DNA of 64,000 nucleotides, taken from NCBI RefSeq assembly GCF_964204865.1, contig NC_135264.1, positions 6,820,001 to 6,884,000 of the forward strand, read 5' to 3'. Numbering within the stretch: the stretch's first letter is position 1; each line of letters begins with the position of its first letter. Positions 16,269-57,904 of the stretch are shown in pieces. Under the pieces are notes generated by a model. That model ran no database searches and was not told where the DNA came from. It saw only the letters and a program-made list of their open reading frames with translations. A program made the position numbers and the translations under genes. Source of the DNA: Styela clava (Eukaryota).

Positions 16269-18740
<2,472 letters not shown>

Positions 18741-20512
18741 GTTACTTTCAATTTATCTGGAAATCGGAGTATATTTCATTCAATTGAATAATAGGTTTTG
18801 TGCAAATATAGTTAACGATATAAAGAGGTAGTCTAACTAGTGATCCATATTTAATTGTAATATTCTTGTAGAATTACGCCTGTGTACCTTCTGCTATACA
18901 CCTATTGCTATTTAAGATATCATGAATATGAATTTAACTTAAAAGTCTGACCACTAATTCTTTCACACGCTCTCAGATATTTTGAGAAAGTTGTTAATTC
19001 AATTTTTGAATGCCTTTCATTTGCTTAGTCTCTCCCCAGGGAGGTAAATGAATATACGATGTCGTCATTCTAGTCGTTGTATTTTCGTTATTGAACTGAT
19101 TCCTGTATAATCGATTTATGGATAATTTATTTCAATTACGAACTATTTCTGAACCTATCATTATGGCATTACCATCTTCAGCAGTCATTATTTTCGCGAT
19201 TTGTATTTGTTAGATTTTCTCGGTGAAGTCCATTCGTTTTCTTATTTCGAATTAAGGACCCCAACAGAAAACGTGTACGAATTAATAAATATTGGGTAAG
19301 TGTGAAATAGAAAAGGGAATACTACCTGGAATGGCAGTCGACCGCGGAAATGAAATGCAACTCGACACCATCTAAGAACGCTGTACTGATTTCCAACTCC
19401 CAGCCCTAGTTCCAGATTGAAACTATTTTTGAAAACTATATTTTTTCAAATCTACTGTTTCTCCTCTGATGAATTTTTGTTTTGTTATTAAGCTTCTAGT
19501 GTTTTTGGCTGCTTGTCCAGATCTTTGTTTGAAAAAAATGAACATTTTGTTTACAAAGGCTGTGATGAAATCGAAGTAGCCCCACCTATCGTGGCATACG
19601 AAGCACAGTCAGTATGAGTCACGTGGCCAAGTGAGCCATTTGTTTATGTGCATTATGGTTGCGACCTCTCATAATTGTTGTTCTCGTGTTTTTTCATTCC
19701 AGGCATGGAATTGTTCAAGTCAATAAGAGACAAGATATCAGTATAAAGATATCGCTATAAAGACTGAGTTTATTCTAAAAAAAATCCGAGCTTTTGTGAA
19801 AGACGACACCATGTGTATAGATGCGCTTTGCCTAAATATAAATTATTTCTTTCTTCAAAAACTCCTTCAGTAATTAAACTCTGCTCTATCTAAATAGATT
19901 GCATTTTATAGTTTAGGGCTTACCAAATGTTTTTCATGAAGAGTCGGATAATACGAGGACTTACAATCGCGATGAAATCATTATTAAATGGGTGAATTTC
20001 GTTACAATCGTTGATTGCTTTTGTTGGCGTTTTGTAAATATTTAGTCTGTGAACTACTTTATATATATCGGTTCCTCTACTTTTCCCTATCTCACAAGTC
20101 TGTCGACTTAGTTACGTACGCCTTGGGCCACGAGGACATGGACGATGGATGTCTCTGCTATAATTTATCAATAAACTCTCGTCGATAATATCATTTCTTT
20201 GAGCTATCAAGCGAACGGTACCATTTTAAACGGCGATGCTTTTCCAAATAAGCTATGCTCTTTGATGTCATTAAAGTTTTTATCAGATCACCGATAAGAC
20301 GAAACATAAAGACGCCACTTAAACTGGATATCTTTATTAAACAAGCCAAGGTATTCCAAAAATAATTTTTGTCTGTTATCAAAAGCCCATTGCTAGTATA
20401 TGATCATCATAAGAAATTCTAGATTTGTGTAAGATATTATTAATATTGCAAAGTATATATTTTACAAACGCTGAAAAATGTGAACTCTATGTGAACTTTT
20501 TATATAATTCGG

Positions 20513-22642
<2,130 letters not shown>

Positions 22643-27393: not shown

Positions 27394-29980
27394 ATGGTTG
27401 GAATAAAGATCTACTTATTTTTGACTGCAATATGTTTTTTGGGAGAAACCGCAACTTCCCAGCTTTGCTCAAAAACAGAAGAATATCAAGCTATTGATTG
27501 GGACAGGGTAAAAATCTTGGAAATTTATCAAAAACTTTTTTCGTTGTCATAATATTTTGACGAAGTCGCACATTAGTCACTTTAAAAAAATAAAAATAAA
27601 AATATTTGCGCCCTTTTTCAATGTAATAACGCTAACCATTGTGTTAATAAAACAATAATTACAAGCTGATTCGATTACAACATGAGTCGTACAGCTTCAT
27701 ATTAAATTGGCATTTCTCATGGTAGTTGGTGACTTCAGAAGTTTCAGAATTCGACAATATACTACACAATCTTCATTTTTAGAAAAATTAGCTGAAGGAC
27801 CCCGAATAACGATCGATTTATGGCGGTACATTCAGTCTAATTCATATAATTTTCAAGTGTGTTTCTATTTCAGTTTGGCAAAATAAAAGGAACATGGTTT
27901 GATGGACTTGACATCCCGAATCCTGGTAATACTGGTAAATTTCCGAGAACATGTCATGATATACATCATTTCAAAGCAACAGAAAATGGAGTTATGTTCA
28001 ACCTAACCCTGAGCGTTCGCGGGTAAACTAGCAGTAATCCTATTTAAATATAGACTGTTTGGTTTGATCGCTTTCTGTAAAATGTAGAATTCATTTGAGT
28101 GCATTCGACAAAGCATATCAGGCAGCAGTATTTTTTGTTTATTTGTTGGTCTAATTTATTATTTTTGGTTAAATAAAGACTATTCAAGAAGAATACAATG
28201 GATTTCCGGTTACACTTTATCCGAAGAGAGTACAAAACATACGTAATAGATCAACAACTCAGTGAGAGCAAATTTATATCATTTGAAATATGACCAATAA
28301 AGTGACACATACATAACATATACAGAAAAAAAATAGTTCTAATTGAATTAATTTTGTAGTATTTCTAAAAAATCATTTTATAATTTCTTATCCTAGGCAA
28401 GCGGTCATTGCACCAAATCGCAATTCCAATTTGTTTCTGAAGAAAAATTGATAACGACGTTATTGGTATTTTTAGCAAAGTTCTCAGCTATACCATTTAT
28501 CGAATTGATTTCATTTGCGAAAGTGGGCATTTGAACTCAAATCCGCATTAGCAATATATTATTGAAAAGGCAATGTACTATTTACAGAAACACTCAAATT
28601 TGCATCAAACTAGAGTATCGAAAATCTGCTGTTAGAAGAATAACACTTACATCGTATTCTCAGCATTAATGAACGTAACTGATATTTTTCTTTCAGAACC
28701 TTCGTTTCTGGCAAAACTCAAGAAGTTGTATTTTGATACCCCAGGTGGTGGCGCAACCAATGCAGAGTTAGAAAATTGTAAGTAAAAATTGTCGGTTTGA
28801 TTGTGGATATATAATAATATATTGCTCCAATACTTGCCTTATTCTCGCTATGACCGTCTAGAAAAAAAGGGGGCTTTCAAACCAGGCCCGTTTTCCAGGC
28901 TTTATTATCTGTATCCCATGTCGCACTCGGAGAGTAACCGAAAAATAGCATTTAGTGTTGTTCCGTCATAAAATTAACCAGAAAAATATTTTGACGCATT
29001 GTTACATCACTAATGTCACTGAATTGGCTGATGTTATGGCTGGCTGGGGCAACTAGCGAAGTTGAATGATGTTCTTGGCAGTATTAATCAATTGTTATAT
29101 GGCTTTCTTGTTTTTTTGGTCGGGAATATATGCTAACAATTTTGGCCTCACAGAGAAATGAAAATTGAATGCGGATTCTATTAGCCTAGGTTGGCTATGC
29201 CTGATAACTTAATATTAATGTTATGGTCTAACAATATAATTCATGTCGGGGTTTTTTTGCAACTAGCCTAAACATAATTACAAAAAATGCTGCCTATATA
29301 AAAAACTACCTTCGATGTTCGGAAGCACTTACATTTGCGGAAGCTTTTTTTCCGTTTAAAAGACTAAATATGAATATAGAAAGACTTTTGCATGTTTCAG
29401 TAAGTTTTTTGCATGTTCTATCTTGATAAATGACGAATACTGATCAATGTGTTTCCACAATTAAAGTGTTTGTTTTGTATTGAACTATTTACCTATTCAT
29501 GGCCCTATTGTGGCCCGCAAGCAATGCGAAAATAATTGTGTGCCCCCCAGTTGACAACCTTGGACCACCCTGGATGGTCTAGAAATTCAAATGTTGTTAT
29601 TTTATTAAGTATTCCCGTGCTTTACTACCTTGCAAATTTGAACCAAGGTTTACATTTATTAGCTCCCGCTTACAACTATAATTTCAGATGCAGACAACTT
29701 ATTCCGAGGGGAGTATTTCTTCATGACAGATTACGACACCTATTTTGTCATGGGATTCTGCACACCAAGAGGTAAATTTAATAGTGTTACATCGTGATAT
29801 ATAGAATCAGTACATGCAATAATATTGCTTTAACATTTTTCAGGATTGATGGGATTTTCACACTTCAGAACCATAACTCCGACGGCAAAGGCAATTTATA
29901 ATATGTGGAATGTATTTGCCAGTCACAATCAAGTAACAAGTATAGGATGGGAAGATATGTGCTTTGCCCGACAGAAATAA
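27394..29980 (+). CDS. Secreted lipocalin L1 (ApoD-like cysteine pattern), intact, 6 exons, 215 aa
   Basis: Exons 27394-27507, 27874-28022, 28179-28261, 28697-28777, 29688-29771, 29844-29980 (648 nt, phases 0,2,1,1,1). Signal peptide; IDWDRFGKIKGTWF (SCR1 GxW); FMTDYDTYFVMGFC (SCR2 TDY); FRTITP (SCR3). Every exon boundary is conserved in L2. Confidence 0.85.
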
Positions 29981-36975: not shown

Positions 36976-38914
<1,939 letters not shown>

Positions 38915-42680: not shown

Positions 42681-44914
42681 AAAGGACTATTTGTCATCCC
42701 TGATTAGTAAAGGTAAAGTTACAGAACGGGTACTCAACCAATAATACAAATACTGTATATATATATTGCATACATCGATATAAGCGTGGAACCTTACTAC
42801 AAATCTATTACGGTTATCACTTGTTTCGTTTCTTTTTTATTGATTTTTCTCAACGCTCGCAGGGTTCAAGTTTAATCAGCTATATTCTCCTGTCTATTAA
42901 CCAGAAATGTTCCATTCAAGTATTGCATACTTTCCTTTTAAAAATTTGTGAAATCAGTGCAAGCAATCGTGACGGGACATTATATGCTCTTTTTATTTAC
43001 CTATACAGTATTACTTTAGGGACGTGTACAAGAGTGTTGTAAGCCAGAGTCATAATATATAGGGATAATTTTTCCACTAGAGTAGATTTTGGATATTCTA
43101 GTTCGACCCCGAACACTCATGTCCATGTGGCCCTGTATACCATTAAGCCATCTCATTCTGTATTACTGATATTAGGGTTGGTCGTGTTTTTGTTGACCTG
43201 TATTTTATCTAATCAATCCATTTCTGCTGGATATTAAAGTTTACTCTTGTGAGCGAAGAATCGAACATATATTGTGCGGTTTTGTAGCACACCAAATCTA
43301 AGAGGGTTTTACTTACTTGGCATTATTGCGTACTTGTGACACTGCATGGCCGCACAATATTTGGTTCCACTGTTGTTGCAATATTCATGGCTAGATTGCA
43401 CATAATTTTGAAAATTTTGTCCGCCTATGTTTCTAGTGTGTACTTACTTTAATTATCTTTATTATAAAATAGGGAACTTCGTGAATATTAATCGAAAGGA
43501 TTTTGTCCATTGTCTCTTTATACAAGCGCCGTTCTAACGCTACGTCTGTCTCGACCTATTTTCTTTACTTTCATTTCATATTTGTTTATATTAGTATATC
43601 TTATATTTTCGAGACTATCATCACGCTCAAATATGTTGTTTTTAGAATTGTAAGAACAAGCATTACACAGGTCTTCACACATTTATTACCATTTTTAATT
43701 TGGGCAACTTTTACATAAAGCATTTCACTTGATTGGCAGTATACTCCTTGTTCAGCTTCCATGAAAATGAATCCCGATATCTACATGACAGCGATAAAGT
43801 ATGAACAACATTCTTTGGGTGGCTATACTCTTTGTAAACAGACTATCGGATTTCCAAAAAACATTGACATTTTCTAAAATCATTTATATGACCACTGTGC
43901 CCAATATAGCTGCGTGAATCGTGAAGATATAACGTACGTATTTTACAAATGCTGAATAAAGAAATATTGTATGTGAACTCATAGTATAATTCGGCTACTG
44001 CTTTTGCCTCATTTTCATTTCAACAAACTTCAAAGAATATTCATAGCCTTTCCAATGATACCACACTACAGAGATTGCGTGTTGTGCCTTTCCTCCTTCG
44101 ATATACAGCCCATTCAAATTTGTTGCATGACAAGCTCCGTACCAGAACGCTCCCTTGTACTTAACAGCACAGTTTTCGTCAGATGCTGTGTCGTGATCCG
44201 AGTCTTTAGTTGTGAAGGGTCGTCCTTGATGTTGGGAATGTCCAAGTGAATCGCCAGCATTTCCACTGTATTGACCAACCGTTAAACGATAATTTGTTGA
44301 AGAATCGCCGATCGAGAATGCTCTAGAAATAATATATATATATGAAAAGAGCAATTATGAAAATACAATTATAAAAAGCAACTATAAACTTGATTCTAAA
44401 TTAACGTGAAGGTTCGAAGTCCTACCCATATTTTGCATAGGCTTTGTTTCCTTCCCAGTCTTCCATGTCTACTCTGAGTTCGTAAGTCTTGCTTTTCAAG
44501 GTCTGGTAGATATTTTTAAACCTAAATATATTTTGTAGTCTTTCTCATATTGAATTAAAATATAACTATAAATCATGGATATGCCGATTGAGGATCTTAT
44601 ATTAGATCAATTCTTTGTAAGGAGTAAAATCTCCCAAATTATTGATTTTAAATCGATATAACCAGATATAAATTCTCTGAGTAGCTGTAAACGCTTGAAT
44701 CTTAAGCATATGACATTTGTCATCACTCAACAACTCAGCAATCATATTTCAAAAAATCTCCCAGATTAGTGAAATTCCCAAGGGAATGGCACTTCGTGAC
44801 CAATTCTGATTAATCGTGCGTCGATGTGGGTAAACGGAATCAGTTCCAGAAGTATGTGTACCAATATGGAAGTAACTAATTTTGTTCTCCTACTTTACAT
44901 CATGTTGTGTAGAG

Positions 44915-46365: not shown

Positions 46366-48004
46366 GTGTAAAGGGACTAAAACCTATGGGAGGAGGTTAC
46401 ATTCACTTGTCTAACACAGCCAGTACCCGAACTCGTAGTAGAAATAAAATAAGAAAAATCGGAATAAAATTATGGCCTAACCCTAACCTGGTACACATAC
46501 CACGGGAGTACCGATTTTTTTGCACCCAGATGCTCATTATACATGCCTTCAAACGAAAAAATTGCACTACCGAGATATTTGAAAACTTTTTAACACAAGG
46601 CCATCGATGGTATTTATGTGAATAAAACAACTCACCAAGCCAAAATTCTCCAATCGTATTTCCAAATCCATTTACATAATCATTCCATCCACGATAAAAG
46701 TCTTCAGAGCCATCCATTCGGCGTTGAAATACCTTTGTAAAAATATTATACTTTCATGTCTTTTTTTTATTATACATAAATATTTTAGATAATTTCTAAC
46801 AAATTTTAATTTGATCATGTGAATCGATTCAACTCACAATCCACCCTCCACCATCTGTCACGAGGTCACAGTAAACCTCAATCTTTTCAGAAACAGGGGT
46901 AGGGTAGATTTCAAAAACTCCTCCGGTTTCATTCCAAGAAAGAGAATTGAGTTTGTGTAATCCACGACAACTATCCGGATAATAACGATCTGAATAAAAG
47001 TTTGCAATTATTAGGCGTATATTTTTTAATGTCATATTGTTTTTTCATGGAACAAATTTACATGCCACTTTTTTCCGACAAAATTTTACTCTATGGTAAC
47101 TATGGACGATAAGGAAAATGGGAATCGAATGCACAATCCATTCGTGTCTAATATTCAGATTTATTGTTATTTTATTTTTTCATACTAAATTGCTTGAATC
47201 AAAATTTGCCAGAGCATATATTTTATCGATGTCAGAGACCAGAGGCAAACTGGAATCTAGTAGGCTATTGACCAAACAATCATCGTTCAGCATATTTTCA
47301 CATTAGTGTTTCTAATTGATTTAGCTATGTCAATACGTTGCTGTTTTGTCGATTAAAACCCGAGAAAATATTTGCGTCATCGACATATGTGCTAGATTAA
47401 AACAAGATTCTATGTCAGGAATTAAACCCCAATTGATGAATATATATATTGATGAGATACTCACAAAACATAGAGTATTCAGAGGCGTAATGGGGACAGC
47501 CTTATTAGGCAAAACCAAGTTCGGCCAACTCGGGATCGCTTAATGACTTATGACATACGATTTGAATATTCATTTTTACCTCTTTGCAATGCTTCTTCCA
47601 TCTTATTGTATTTCTCATTCAGACGCATTTCCACTTCTGCAATGTTAAAAAGAAACTATTTGCTAAAACCAATTTACAAATATTACATATGGATAAGTTG
47701 TGTGTTGATCACAAGTGCCGCAACATCAGAAGCTTGAAAATGTGTGGTTGATTGAAAGCAACTTGATTCTGTACTTGACGTTATCAAAAGGTCAAAGTTG
47801 AGTTTTCAGAGGTCAGTTTGTAATATTTTAAAAAGACCGCGCTAGCTTAGCAATCGTATCCAAATAATACTAAATTAAAAAAAAAAAAAACAGTTCACTC
47901 ACATCCCTCGACTCTTGTAGTGAGATTGTTGAATCAAATATTGTATTGTAACAGCCCTATGCATGTTCCAATTTTATGAGGCAAGATGTGTTTACTTATA
48001 CAAG

Positions 48005-48147
48005 ACAATCACCAATTGATCGTCTGCATCCATGAAAATAAAAAAGACCAGGGCAAATGTATGGATTTAATAATACAATCACCAATTGATCGTCTGCATC
48101 CATGAAAATAAAAAAGACCAGGGCAAATGTATGGATTTAATAATACA
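48005..48147. repeat. Perfect 70-bp tandem duplication in intron 1 of gene D
   Basis: acaatcaccaattgatcgtctgcatccatg...atggatttaataat occurs twice; single in gene A. Confidence 0.9.
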
Positions 48148-49837
48148 TATTATAGTACCTGAAATGTCATTTGATATTTTGGCATTGACACGATTGTAAT
48201 CAACGACACCAGATTCTCCTTTTTGTCCCGGCATACCACGTGGACCAGTTTTTCCAACACGACCCGGTTCTGAGATCTGATCGGCACATGGCTCACTCTG
48301 TCCACCACTCGTTTGCTGTAGTTTGCAATATTCGTACATCTTTGTACAGAGTCTGATGTCTTCTTGACCTACGACTGACCGACTGTACAATAAAAGTACA
48401 AGAACGATGTATATGTCGTATAAGTTCATGTTATTTTTAATTTTAATAATCTGGAAATCGAAGTATATTTCCATTAGATTGAATAATAATTTTTGTAGAA
48501 ATGTAGTTAACGATATAAAGAGGTAGTCTAAACGCTAAATGCTCCATATGATTACTCTTGTAAAATTACGCCTGTGTACCTTCTGCTACACCTATTGCTA
48601 TTTGAGATATATATCATGAATATGAACTCAACTTAGAAGTCTGATTACTATTTCTTCTAAACGCTCTCAACTATTTGAGAATGTTGTTAATTCGAGTTTT
48701 ACATTCCTTTCATTTGCTTAGTCTCTCTCCAGGAGGTAAATAAATAAACGATTGCGCTCTAATCGATGTATTTCGGTCATTGAACTGCTGCAAGGTATGT
48801 CAAATTTGTTTGGAAAAATATTCTTAGAGCTGTCAATGAGAGACATCAAGCGCTTGGGTGTACCTCCGTATGGCCTCAGGGTCGAGGTGAATTACCCATT
48901 TATTCTATTGTAGCCATATTTTTCGATGCAATTCTGACATACGGTATGTTTTTTTTCTGTAGTGAGTTATCGATAAATAAGCGTTTTGTTATTGTGTGTG
49001 AACGCTCCGCAATTACAACGAGTGACATACAATTACATATCTCCCATTGACTCCCCAAGTATTCGAAATCACCAGGTAATCGAAAATGCCCTGCCCAGCC
49101 CTTTTAGTCCTTGCCATTGTGACATAACAATGGATATTTCGACACGGCGTATTGCTATCTAAGTTTGCACCGTAATTTTCAGAGTGGTTCAACGTTTTTT
49201 TCCTCCAAAAACTCTTTGCAACTCCGAGGAGTCTTTTTCGTGAAATAAGTCATTAAAGAACTTGGTCTGATGACAATGTGCAGTATGGCTTTACCTGCTC
49301 AACTGGACGGGACTCCAATGCAAAACGTCATGAGAATTGTTCAATTTGAAACGAAGCCACGTATCTCTCAGTTGTTCACAGAGAAACAGTAGCAGAAGTG
49401 TCACTAATAAATCTAATGAATGTATAAAGTTTACTGTGGTATTGCAATTTATTCTGCTACAACCAATGGCGTAACCAGCGGTTCTTTCGGCGGTTGATAC
49501 TCTCTTGGTCTTGACAAAGCATGTTCTTTGAATTTTAACCCGAAAAAACAACCTATGCTCAACAGTAAGGCAACAAGTTCATATTCTATCAATTGAAGTC
49601 GATCAAATTTTCTATAAATTTGTATAAATCCGACTTCACCTGAATAAGTTCAGGTTGCGCTCTTAGTTCAAAAATTTTGGGTTCAACAGGAGCTAACGGA
49701 ATAGCGTAGGGGTTCGGCAGGCTCACAAATGTTAAGAACCACTGAACTAAATAGAACGTAAAGCTAGATTCAATATATATAATGGTCCTATGAAAGTGAC
49801 TTCGAAGGCCGCTTAGAGACAGTTAATAAATTGGTCA

Positions 49838-53873: not shown

Positions 53874-55428
53874 TTGGCCACCAGTTGGGCGTAAAAGTTC
53901 ACTGCAAACCTTTCTCAGCGCACACTTACAGCTACGGAACCGTTTTAAAACTACCTGTATGTAATAATACCATCCATTTTGCAATTGTTTAACTTATTTG
54001 ATTGTTTTGTCACCAGGAAGTCACGGTTGGCGAAACATGTCTTTATTTGAGTGACACCTACAGACGTAATTTTTATTTAAAAAAAAATTCGCGTGAACAA
54101 CATCCGTTTCCAGTTTTGAACGAATCCGATGTCCTTCTATTTTAAAACCTTTTTTTCAGTAAATTCCGGGACAACCGTAGTCCAGTCCGGGACACGGGAC
54201 GACAGACATCAATTCCGGGACTGTCCTGGTCATTCTGGGTGGGACGGATGGTAAACCTATATATAAACCTGATTTTCCTTAGGGACTCGTTAAAAAAGAT
54301 TTGTTTTAAAACAATTGATTTGAATCATTTTTTCACCTGTTTTGTTCTGTTAAAATTGCTGTATTATTTGTTTCTTTTGTATTGAATAAGTTAAAACAGA
54401 AATATCCTCTTCAAAAACCAACAAGTATGAATGACTTGACCGTATACGCCTTCCTAACATGGAGCGTACCGCTCGTGTCATACCACATCACCACGTGTTG
54501 GACTTACGACCCGCCAAATTTCCGAGCGCCTACAATTTCGGCTTTAATTACGCTATGTCGTGCCAAAGCGCCAGTTTATTGAAATCAGTGATGGGTACTG
54601 TAACGAAGTATTTACTGTATTTCTGGCAGAAAAGAAGTTGCATAAAGTCTCTCCATCGCAAAATTCTACCCGATACAGGAAAATATAGAAAAAGGTTGGG
54701 AACTACCCCGGTTAAAACAAAAAAGTGAATGTGATAACCTGCCCAATCGATCCTTAACGTCAATATCCTTCGGAACACCACAGATATGATTGACTTTCCC
54801 GTACACGTTCTCTCACGCTGAGCAAAACACGTCAACAAACGTGGTTGGCGAGAAGGCCGCAACCGACTAGCCGTTGCAGCGATGCTTGTTAGGTTAGCTA
54901 TGGACTATTGGCTATTACGGTATATAGTATATATATTTTGTAAACCTGTAGATCTTGCATTAAACAGAGAATAATCACACACAATTGTAACGACCAAGAG
55001 ACAAATAGTTTAATGCAGCATGAGTTGTCATTTATTTGCATGTGTAAACCAAAGCAACAAATGATTCATATAAAAAGTTCAATCTATGAATTAGGTAACA
55101 AATACCAGATATATTAGACTCTAAAATGTACCCATGTAGGAGTTTTTAATGTTGCCGAATTTCGAATATGTACTTTGAAAAACAGTTTGCAATCTGCGAG
55201 TTATACGTACACATTTGTTTGTTTACTTTGATGACGTTGAATCTAATAAAGGTTTGCTACTGACATGATATTAATAAATTCGTCGGTGTTTATATATATA
55301 TCAATAACTTCCATATTCAAATATAGTTTTATGTCGTTGAGTTTGTTTTATAACGATGAAATATTGAATCAAAATACAACACTTTATAAAGTGAATATAT
55401 CAAAAGAAGTACATTTCAATCGAATTTA

Positions 55429-57904
55429 CTACTGCCAGGCAAAGCACATATCTTCCCATCCTATACTTGTTACTTGATTGTGACTGGCAAATACATTCCA
55501 CATATTATAAATTGCCTTTGCTGTCGGAGTTATGGTTCTGAAGTGTGAAAACCCCTTCAATCCTGAAAATATTTAATGCAAAATGCAATATCATTGCATG
55601 TACTAATTTTATATATCACCATGTAACATTGTTATATTTACCTATTGGTGTGCAGAATCCCATGACAAAGTAAGTGTCGTAATCTGTCATGAAGAAATAC
55701 TCGCCTCGAAATAGGTTGTCTGCATCTGAAATGATAGTTGTAAGTGGGAGCTAATAAATGTACCTTGGTCCAAATATTGCAAACTTTTGCAAGGTGATAA
55801 ACCATGGAAATACTTAATAAAAGGTTGTCGGCTCTGGAGGCCGCAAAATTATTTTCGCAGTGTTCGCGGGCCACAATAGTGCCAAGAATAGGTAAACAGT
55901 TCAATACTAAACAAACACTTTAATTGTGGAAACGCACTGATCATGATTTGTCATTTATCGAGCTAAAACACGCAAAAACCACCGAAAACTTACTAAAACC
56001 TCCAAATGTGTTTCTGTATTTATATTTAGTGTAAGATTTCAAACTCTTTCAAACGGAAAAGGTGCTTCCGCTAATGTAAAAACACCTTGCATGAATTATA
56101 TTGTATATATTAAGTTAACAGGCACAGCCAATCTAGGCTAATAGAATCCGCATTCAATTTTAAGTTCTCTACGATGCCAAAATTGTTAGCATATATTCCC
56201 GACCAAAAAGATAGAAAGTCAGATAACAATTAAGACTGCCAAGAACATCATTCAACTTCGCTAGTTGCCTCAGCTAGTCATAACTCAGCCAATTCAGTGA
56301 CATGAAACAATATGTCAAAAGCTTTTTCTTGTAAATTTTATTACGAAACAACATTAAATGCGATTTTTTGATTACTCTCCGAATGCGACGCGGGCCACAG
56401 ATAATGAAGCCTGGGAAAATAGGCCTGGGTTTAGACCACCCTGTTCTGGACGGTCAAAGCAGAATGCGGCAAGTCTTGGGGCTATATATTAGAATATATC
56501 CACAATTAAACCAACAATTTCCACTTACAAGTCTCTAGCTCTTCATTTGTTGCGCCACCACCTGGGGTATCAAAATACAACTTCTTGAGTTTTGACAGAA
56601 ACGAAGTTTCTAAAAGAAAAATATTGGTTATGTTCATTAATGTCGAGAATACGATATGTTATATTTCTAACAGCAGGTTTTCAATACGCTACGTCGATGC
56701 AAATTTGAGAATTTCGGTAAATAAGACATTGTCTTATCAATAATATATTGCTAATGCGGAAGCTTAAATGCCTACGTTCACAGATGAAATCAATTCGATA
56801 AATTGTGTGGCTGAAAACTTCACTAGATACACAAATAACGGCGTTATCAATTTTAAAAAAAATTTGGTATTGCGATTTGGTGCGATGAGCGCTCGCCTAG
56901 AATAAGAAATTACAAAATGCTTTTTTAGAAACACAACAAACTTAATTCAATGTAGAACTGTTTTTTTCTGTATGTTGTGTATTTGTCACATTGTTGATTA
57001 CAATTCACAATGATACAAATTGCGCTCACTGAGTTGTTGATCTATGATGTATGTTTCGCCCTTTCTTCGGATAAAGTGTAACTGGAAATCCATTGTATTC
57101 TTGTTGAATAGCCTTTAAAAAAGATAATAAATTAAGCAAACAAATGAACAAAAACGCTGCTTCATGATTTGCCCTGTCAAATGCACTCAAATGAACTTTA
57201 CAGTTTACACAAAGCGATCAAACTGAACAGTCTATATTTAAATAAGATTACTGCTAGTTTACCCGTGAACGCTCAGAGTTAGGTTGAACATAACTCCATC
57301 TTCTGGTGCTTTGAAATGATGTATATCATGACATGTTCTCGGAAATTTACCAGTATTACCAGGATTCGGGATGTCAAGTCCATCAAACCATGTTCCTTTT
57401 ATTTTGCCGAACTGAAATACAAATACACTTGAGAATTATATGAACTAGACCGAATATACCGCCATAAATCGATCGTTATTCGGGGTCCTTAGCTAATTTA
57501 TCCAAAAACGAAGGTTGTGTAGTATATTGTCGAATTCAACTTCTTAAGTCGTCAACTATACCATGAAAAATGCCAACTCAATATGGAGCTGGACTACTCG
57601 TGTGATTTAATCTTATCAGCTTGTGATCATTGTTTTAGCTATCACAATTCACAATAGTTAGCATTATTACATTAAAAAAAGGTTAAAATATTTCATTTTT
57701 ATTCTTCATTTTAATAGTGACTGATGTGCGACTTAGTCAAAATATTATACCAACAGAAAGAGTTTTTGATAAATTTCCAAGATTTCTTACCCTGTCCCAG
57801 TCAATAGCTTGATATTCATCTGTTTTGGAGCAGAGCTGAGTAGTTACCGTTTCTCCCAAAAAATATATCGCAGCCAAAAATATGTAGATCTTCATTCTCA
57901 CCAT
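55429..57904 (-). CDS. Secreted lipocalin L2, intact, 6 exons, 214 aa
   Basis: Exons 57904-57791, 57411-57263, 57112-57030, 56609-56529, 55725-55642, 55562-55429 (645 nt, in frame). Near-identical to L1 (GTWF, TDYDTY, GWEDMCFAWQ*). Confidence 0.85.

Follow-up and report, generated by a model that had tools for sequence, protein, structure and literature searches.

In beta-lactoglobulin, the calyx is opened and shut by the E-F loop, which, like that of L-PGDS, is short and non-helical. FABP, a ten-stranded cytosolic fold, has its ligand-binding barrel capped by two helices of the A-B loop that form a helix-turn-helix portal. ApoD is encoded with intron phases 0,2,1. The E-F loop of L-PGDS is described as opening and closing its cavity (PMC2755957), and in plant fibrillins a helical insert between strands E and F, next to the mouth of the barrel, is described as governing lipid-droplet docking and altering fatty-acid binding (PMC13409515). 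In a review of chordate lipocalins, a single lipocalin was reported as detected in Ciona, and the expansion of the family was placed in the vertebrates (PMC8420045). Among the papers listed by our literature searches, none describes a tunicate lipocalin family, and the main text of the Styela clava genome paper does not use the word lipocalin, although its supplements may list these genes among the expanded families (PMC7540406).

The DNA analyzed here is a stretch of 64,000 nucleotides from S. clava (NC_135264.1, positions 6,820,001 to 6,884,000; hereafter the window), which lies on contig C19 of the 377-Mb assembly that was searched. All coordinates below are those of the window unless a contig is named.

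Results

Gene structure and RNA contigs

The lipocalin-like gene at 27394..29980 consists of six coding exons on the forward strand, whose ends are all canonical AG/GT and which together give an open frame of 215 aa.

27394..27507, + strand: exon 1; likely signal peptide, Cys25, and the start of SCR1; phase 0 at its end
27874..28022, + strand: exon 2; SCR1 Trp46, predicted strands A-C, and Cys65; phase 0-2
28179..28261, + strand: exon 3; predicted strands D-E and the opening turn of insert helix 1; phase 2-1
28697..28777, + strand: exon 4; 81 nt, residues 116-142, which form the middle part of the helical hairpin predicted between strands E and F; phase 1-1
29688..29771, + strand: exon 5; last part of insert helix 2, followed by strands F-G, TDY motif, and Cys167; phase 1-1
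29844..29980, + strand: exon 6; strand H, which carries Arg179 of SCR3, then the C-terminal helix, Cys210, and stop

The intron phases are 0,2,1,1,1. The first three agree with the lipocalin-type series 0,2,1 that a sequence-only reading of this locus had recognized, and the 1-1 phases of exon 4 bear out its description as a symmetric 81-nt exon whose removal is frame-neutral. Within intron 4, at 28860-29590, lie repeats of high copy number that are covered very deeply by contigs, and a related element is present in the same intron of another copy, L035.

Contigs from four runs of two studies join the exons of this model, including both the exon 3-4 and the exon 4-5 joints, and three of the four runs show a joint on one or both sides of exon 4. 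No run is recorded as RNA; the contigs were read as such because of their spliced GT-AG joints. The long spliced contigs match the letters of sister copies and not those of the gene at 27394..29980, and they likely come from the following copy in the window.

55426..57904, - strand: sister copy P0005 (NCBI LOC144411873); intact, inverted; exon 4 at 56529-56609

One 124-nt 3' contig has 4 differences to the gene at 27394..29980 and at least 19 mismatches to each of the six other copies compared. Since the long contigs match the sisters, it is for the sisters that they demonstrate splicing, whereas this one short contig does no more than hint that the gene itself is expressed. Among the joints listed for two loci (the gene with its sisters, and the P0027 locus), all include exon 4 and none runs from exon 3 to exon 5, in contigs, which drop rare forms; the earlier idea of exon skipping is thus not supported. 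NCBI model P0027, which lacks exon 4, was considered as an insert-less member and rejected. Its locus holds a 78-nt exon 4 (L056:2941-3018) that is included in RNA contigs of four runs from three studies, and the model is an annotation miss. NCBI model P0024 likewise misses exon 5.

Lipocalin motifs and sequence searches

The 215-aa protein has cysteines at positions 14 (within the likely signal peptide), 25, 65, 167, and 210. In the family profile, Cys25, Cys65, and Cys167 align to cysteines of ApoD and Cys210 to the last cysteine of crustacyanin A2, and the four are kept in 39 of 40, 41 of 42, 42 of 43, and 39 of 41 rows, respectively. The profile alignment and these counts confirm the proposal of four mature cysteines spaced as in ApoD/Lazarillo, which would form two ApoD-type disulfides. 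All three SCR-like motifs noted earlier were likewise found and aligned to ApoD: Trp46 of SCR1 (36 of 43 rows), the TDY motif of SCR2 (Thr156, Asp157, and Tyr158 in 38, 41, and 39 of 43), and Arg179 of SCR3, which is present in this gene and in 18 of 42 family rows. The three-residue insert described in SCR1 is real, with an Asp35-Trp46 spacing of 11 against 8 in the ApoD row. Across 42 rows, the spacing is 11 in 14, 10 in 2, 9 in 13, and 8 in 13, so the insert marks one subclade only. The N terminus is hydrophobic and forms a helix (2-20) in the predicted model of P0005, and the protein is likely secreted via a signal peptide.

Single-sequence Pfam searches with P0001, P0005, and P0007 gave no match, the best hit of a single sequence against the PDB sequences had an E value of 0.67, and an exon-by-exon search of the genome with PF00061 and PF08212 found nothing. 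Six family rows match PF00061 below the curated cut-off, the best at 21 of 23 bits. The 44-row profile matches crustacyanin A2 (E = 9.8e-9) and ApoD (E = 2.3e-8), each in two stretches split around a gap of ~26 positions, and also matches Per a 4, sandercyanin, and bilin-binding protein by sequence. The missing Pfam match (PF00061/PF08212) is a detection limit for divergent members and not a structural criterion.

Predicted fold

The protein that was folded is the sister copy P0005 and not the product of the gene at 27394..29980. Predicted from the 44-row alignment (pLDDT 87.8, pTM 0.82), the P0005 model has eight strands, A-H, and a C-terminal helix, with two further helices (113-129 and 137-149; pLDDT 89-98) between strand E (109-111) and strand F (151-156). 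Folding with only six near-identical rows gave a pLDDT of 42, and a Foldseek search on that model was discarded as meaningless. For the 44-row model, the best match by VIA is ApoD (2hzr; Z = 13.6, RMSD = 2.9, 146 aligned), with C8-gamma, RBP4, VDE, and crustacyanin within ~1.5 Z of it. All 38 VIA entries listed at Z ≥ 8.8 are what we take, in part from their titles, to be lipocalin-fold proteins. Foldseek returned 263 matches to this model at E ≤ 0.001, and an independent Atlas model of the distant paralogue P0013 matched ApoD, RBP4, and MUP at TM 0.57-0.59.

The sequence-only reading had called the protein an atypical lipocalin with an extra exon, a call against which the lack of an eight-stranded barrel, or an exon 4 that proved to be a normal lipocalin strand, was to count. 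Neither occurred: the predicted P0005 barrel has eight strands and matches ApoD best, the P0013 model agrees, and exon 4 falls in an E-F helical hairpin of the P0005 model. By its predicted fold, motifs, and cysteines, the protein is a lipocalin, nearest the ApoD clade.

With that clade (ApoD, crustacyanin, sandercyanin, bilin-binding protein, and Per a 4), which supplies its best structure and profile matches, it shares the predicted eight-stranded barrel and C-terminal helix, the four-cysteine pattern, the SCR1 tryptophan, the TDY motif, and a likely signal peptide. However, identity in the structural alignment is only ~14%, the Styela E-F loop is ~26-29 aa longer, the SCR1 spacing of the Styela subclade is 11 instead of 8, and there is a large family instead of one gene. 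Chordate ApoD is described with four coding exons (PMC8530192), whereas the Styela gene has six. Because of this difference, and because the tree contains family members only, the gene is not filed as an ApoD orthologue.

The E-F insert

Exon 4 corresponds to residues 116-142. Helix 1 of the hairpin begins in exon 3 and helix 2 finishes in exon 5, so the earlier notion of a self-contained exon module is not supported. The E-F loop is enlarged by ~26-29 residues, and the span from the strand-E tyrosine to the TDY aspartate measures 41-49 aa in each of the 42 rows, compared with ~19 in the ApoD row (hand count). Mean identity over the exon-4 columns is 11%, against 20-30% for the other exons. 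Hydrophobic positions are kept at 119 (91%), 127 (88%), 140 (64%), 147 (81%), and 148 (70%). The triple glycine occurs in one of 42 rows, the charge of helix 1 ranges from -4 to +8 (≥+3 in 8 of 42 rows and ≤0 in 24), and helix 2 is often acidic across the family. The description of exon 4 as helix-GGG-helix therefore stands as regards two helices outside the barrel strands, but the cationic-GGG-acidic design is not conserved. On the same counts, the antimicrobial-like reading falls as a conserved design. The pattern is what one would expect of a structural hairpin that buries one face and leaves the outer one free to vary, and it is at odds with a conserved antimicrobial helix.

The helical moments of P0005 are 0.50 and 0.62, with a family median of ~0.4 (author's scale). 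Helix 1 of the gene at 27394..29980 is amphipathic and rich in Lys and Phe; a 70%-identical paralogue has lost part of the hydrophobic face and has a moment of 0.37. Exon 4 compared with that of copy L031 gives pN 0.24 and pS 0.21, on 14 and 4 changes; in three of six pairs, another exon changes faster. When whole copies are compared, pN/pS ranges over 0.31-0.70, and no positive-selection test was passed. The rapid change of exon 4 could be relaxed constraint.

Local copies

On C19, the interval 5.35-6.92 Mb contains 22 matches to exon 2, the intact inverted copy at 55426..57904 among them, and a homologue of exon 4 is kept in all 22 of these copies (the last, broken one was read by eye). Six copies look intact and 16 damaged: six are without exon 1 in the fetched stretch, five have a damaged exon 1 and exon-6 acceptor, three have lost the exon-4 acceptor and have exon 6 interrupted by an insertion whose ends are inverted, one has a frameshift in exon 4, and one has stops. 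Given these 16 damaged-looking copies, part of the repertoire is debris. The three copies with both an exon-4 acceptor loss and an exon-6 insertion (L032-L034) were considered as lid-less genes and rejected; they are read as pseudogenes. Their insertion is ~830 nt long and looks like a non-autonomous DNA transposon. At 5.35-6.07 Mb of C19 (L017-L029), near-identical copies recur every ~93-100 kb, one on the + and one on the - strand per unit, in an array that is either a recent large tandem segmental duplication or an assembly artefact.

The local lipocalin copies are interleaved with fibrinogen-domain exons (5 of 9 frames tested). Between 16272 and 48534, at least four ficolin-like fibrinogen-domain genes lie on both strands among the lipocalin copies.

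16272-16619, - strand: Fibrinogen_C
18384-18752: short collagen-like exon, seen by eye
20516-20881, - strand: Fibrinogen_C
38534-38911, + strand: Fibrinogen_C
43998-44354, - strand: Fibrinogen_C
46406-46753, - strand: Fibrinogen_C
48079-48534: short collagen-like exon, seen by eye

The annotated model P0002 (NCBI LOC144411816) fuses the 3' part of a lipocalin to a ficolin-like signal and collagen exon, and is probably a gene-model artefact.

The wider family

A search with exon 6 reached seven distant places on C1. In nine of nine more divergent paralogues (eight on C1 and one on C19), the splice candidate that scored highest in the interval from exon 3 to exon 5 was a 75-78-nt phase 1-1 exon, and its splice score was reached by 0-6 of 100 shuffles at eight loci and by 23 of 100 at one. 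In three distant clades, too, the insert is covered by an exon of its own in the corresponding place; the exon boundaries were picked automatically, and the exact 1-1 phase was recovered for one of the three. Exon 4, present in all 22 local copies, all nine divergent paralogues, and these three clades, is thus not peculiar to the gene at 27394..29980, as had been supposed. Because intron positions are shared in all intron-bearing clades examined, the exon appears to predate the family radiation, and we infer from the sequences that it arose once, before the family radiated. An origin of exon 4 by duplication of a neighboring exon was rejected as unsupported: of four comparisons, a single one came out borderline (45%, 4 of 300 shuffles), and it did not recur in L031.

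Intronless members, too, have retained an insert of similar length. They (L044-L054) have full open frames of 197-265 aa and form tandem groups on C1, C2, C5, C13, and C19. Eight of them make up a well-supported branch in the family tree, which was built without an outgroup and with six partial rows left out; this suggests an old retrocopy that later expanded.

In total, ~120 matching places were counted by hand on 14 contigs of the S. clava genome, a figure that combines 29, 44 last-exon, and 51 matches, includes broken copies and weak matches, and scores best candidates only. A profile of seven full-length members gave 47 matches among 1.84 billion representatives, 43 of them family-like. 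Of the 26 family-like matches that were checked, 15 are named S. clava, ten others have close matches in the genome, and one is P0048. Every named family member is annotated "uncharacterized," in line with the expectation that such a gene would carry no other label. P0048 (224 aa) has a best match in the assembly of 31% and may come from another organism, in which case the family would extend beyond S. clava. Repeat-driven matches (P0020, P0049, P0050, and P0058) were left out before alignment A5, and P0024 and P0027 were left out of the row counts.

Discussion

We propose, with a probability of roughly 0.6, that the gene at 27394..29980 encodes a secreted ApoD-type lipocalin whose predicted two-helix E-F hairpin serves as a variable lid on a pocket that holds small lipophilic ligands. 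From the loop topology, the hairpin would sit at the open end of the barrel, where it would gate the pocket in a manner differing between paralogues, and the protein would carry small lipophilic molecules. Birth-and-death duplication would then likely yield a repertoire with different lids and pockets.

A lid role for the exon-4 hairpin is plausible, and it would lie at the site where L-PGDS has its calyx gate (PMC2755957). Plant fibrillins and temperature-induced lipocalins (TILs) share a lipocalin-type barrel with an E-F insert, which is helical and amphipathic in fibrillins; the fibrillin insert is described as 16-27 aa and mostly one helix (PMC13409515), whereas the Styela protein, which is likely secreted and bears cysteines, has a longer insert predicted to form a two-helix hairpin. 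Fibrillins are plastid proteins and match the P0005 model weakly (rice FBN5, Z = 6.3), and the two inserts are probably convergent. FABP matches reach a Z of only ~5. Since E-F inserts have this plant precedent, the Styela insert is best regarded as a variant of a known arrangement and not as a new category.

It seems unlikely, though worth weighing, that the hairpin serves mainly to attach the lipocalin to membranes, lipoprotein, or lipid droplets, in the way that E-F inserts dock plant fibrillins and TILs, with gating secondary. The insert occupies the same loop as the fibrillin insert of 16-27 aa and the proline-rich insert of TIL (PMC13409515), ApoD is described as binding lipid surfaces through patches on the pocket rim (PMC8530192), and both P0005 helices are amphipathic (0.50 and 0.62). 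However, the family median moment is only ~0.4, the helix-1 charge spans -4 to +8, helix 2 is often acidic, and a single conserved hydrophobic stripe per helix would be what hairpin packing alone requires.

We give similarly little weight to the hairpin as a protein-binding surface (for self-oligomerization, a receptor, or a microbial target) in a variable recognition repertoire. The exposed hairpin is the most variable part of the protein, the ~120 matching places come with much gene decay, and local copies are interleaved with genes of the fibrinogen-domain group, reported as expanded in S. clava (PMC7540406). Yet no positive-selection test was passed and overall pN/pS is 0.31-0.70, and the fibrinogen neighborhood can reflect shared segmental duplication, other clades being on other contigs.

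An optional cationic antimicrobial-like module added to the gene at 27394..29980, to which the symmetric exon and the Lys- and Phe-rich amphipathic helix 1 had pointed, is very improbable and as a family property largely refuted, given that the whole family has the exon and every listed joint includes it, that its helices run into the adjacent exons, that cationic charge and GGG occur in 8 and 1 of 42 rows, and that a 70%-identical paralogue loses part of the hydrophobic face.

Under the preferred reading of a lidded ApoD-type lipocalin, the insert shows with unusual clarity how a new symmetric exon can turn into a fixed structural element, and a single-exon in-frame deletion would be a simple test of lid function, of relevance to engineered lipocalin scaffolds. 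The main interest lies in the hidden family more than in exon 4 alone. A large, sequence-cryptic ApoD-like family in a tunicate would mean an independent expansion missed by standard searches. It is possible, although we hold this only tentatively, that Styela and perhaps other stolidobranch ascidians have a hidden repertoire of at least 100 lidded lipocalins in which the exon-encoded hairpin is a hypervariable specificity element. If so, a lineage credited with a single lipocalin would possess an invertebrate-chordate analogue of the expansions of urinary and odorant-binding proteins in mammals, or else a naturally occurring recognition system resembling anticalins.
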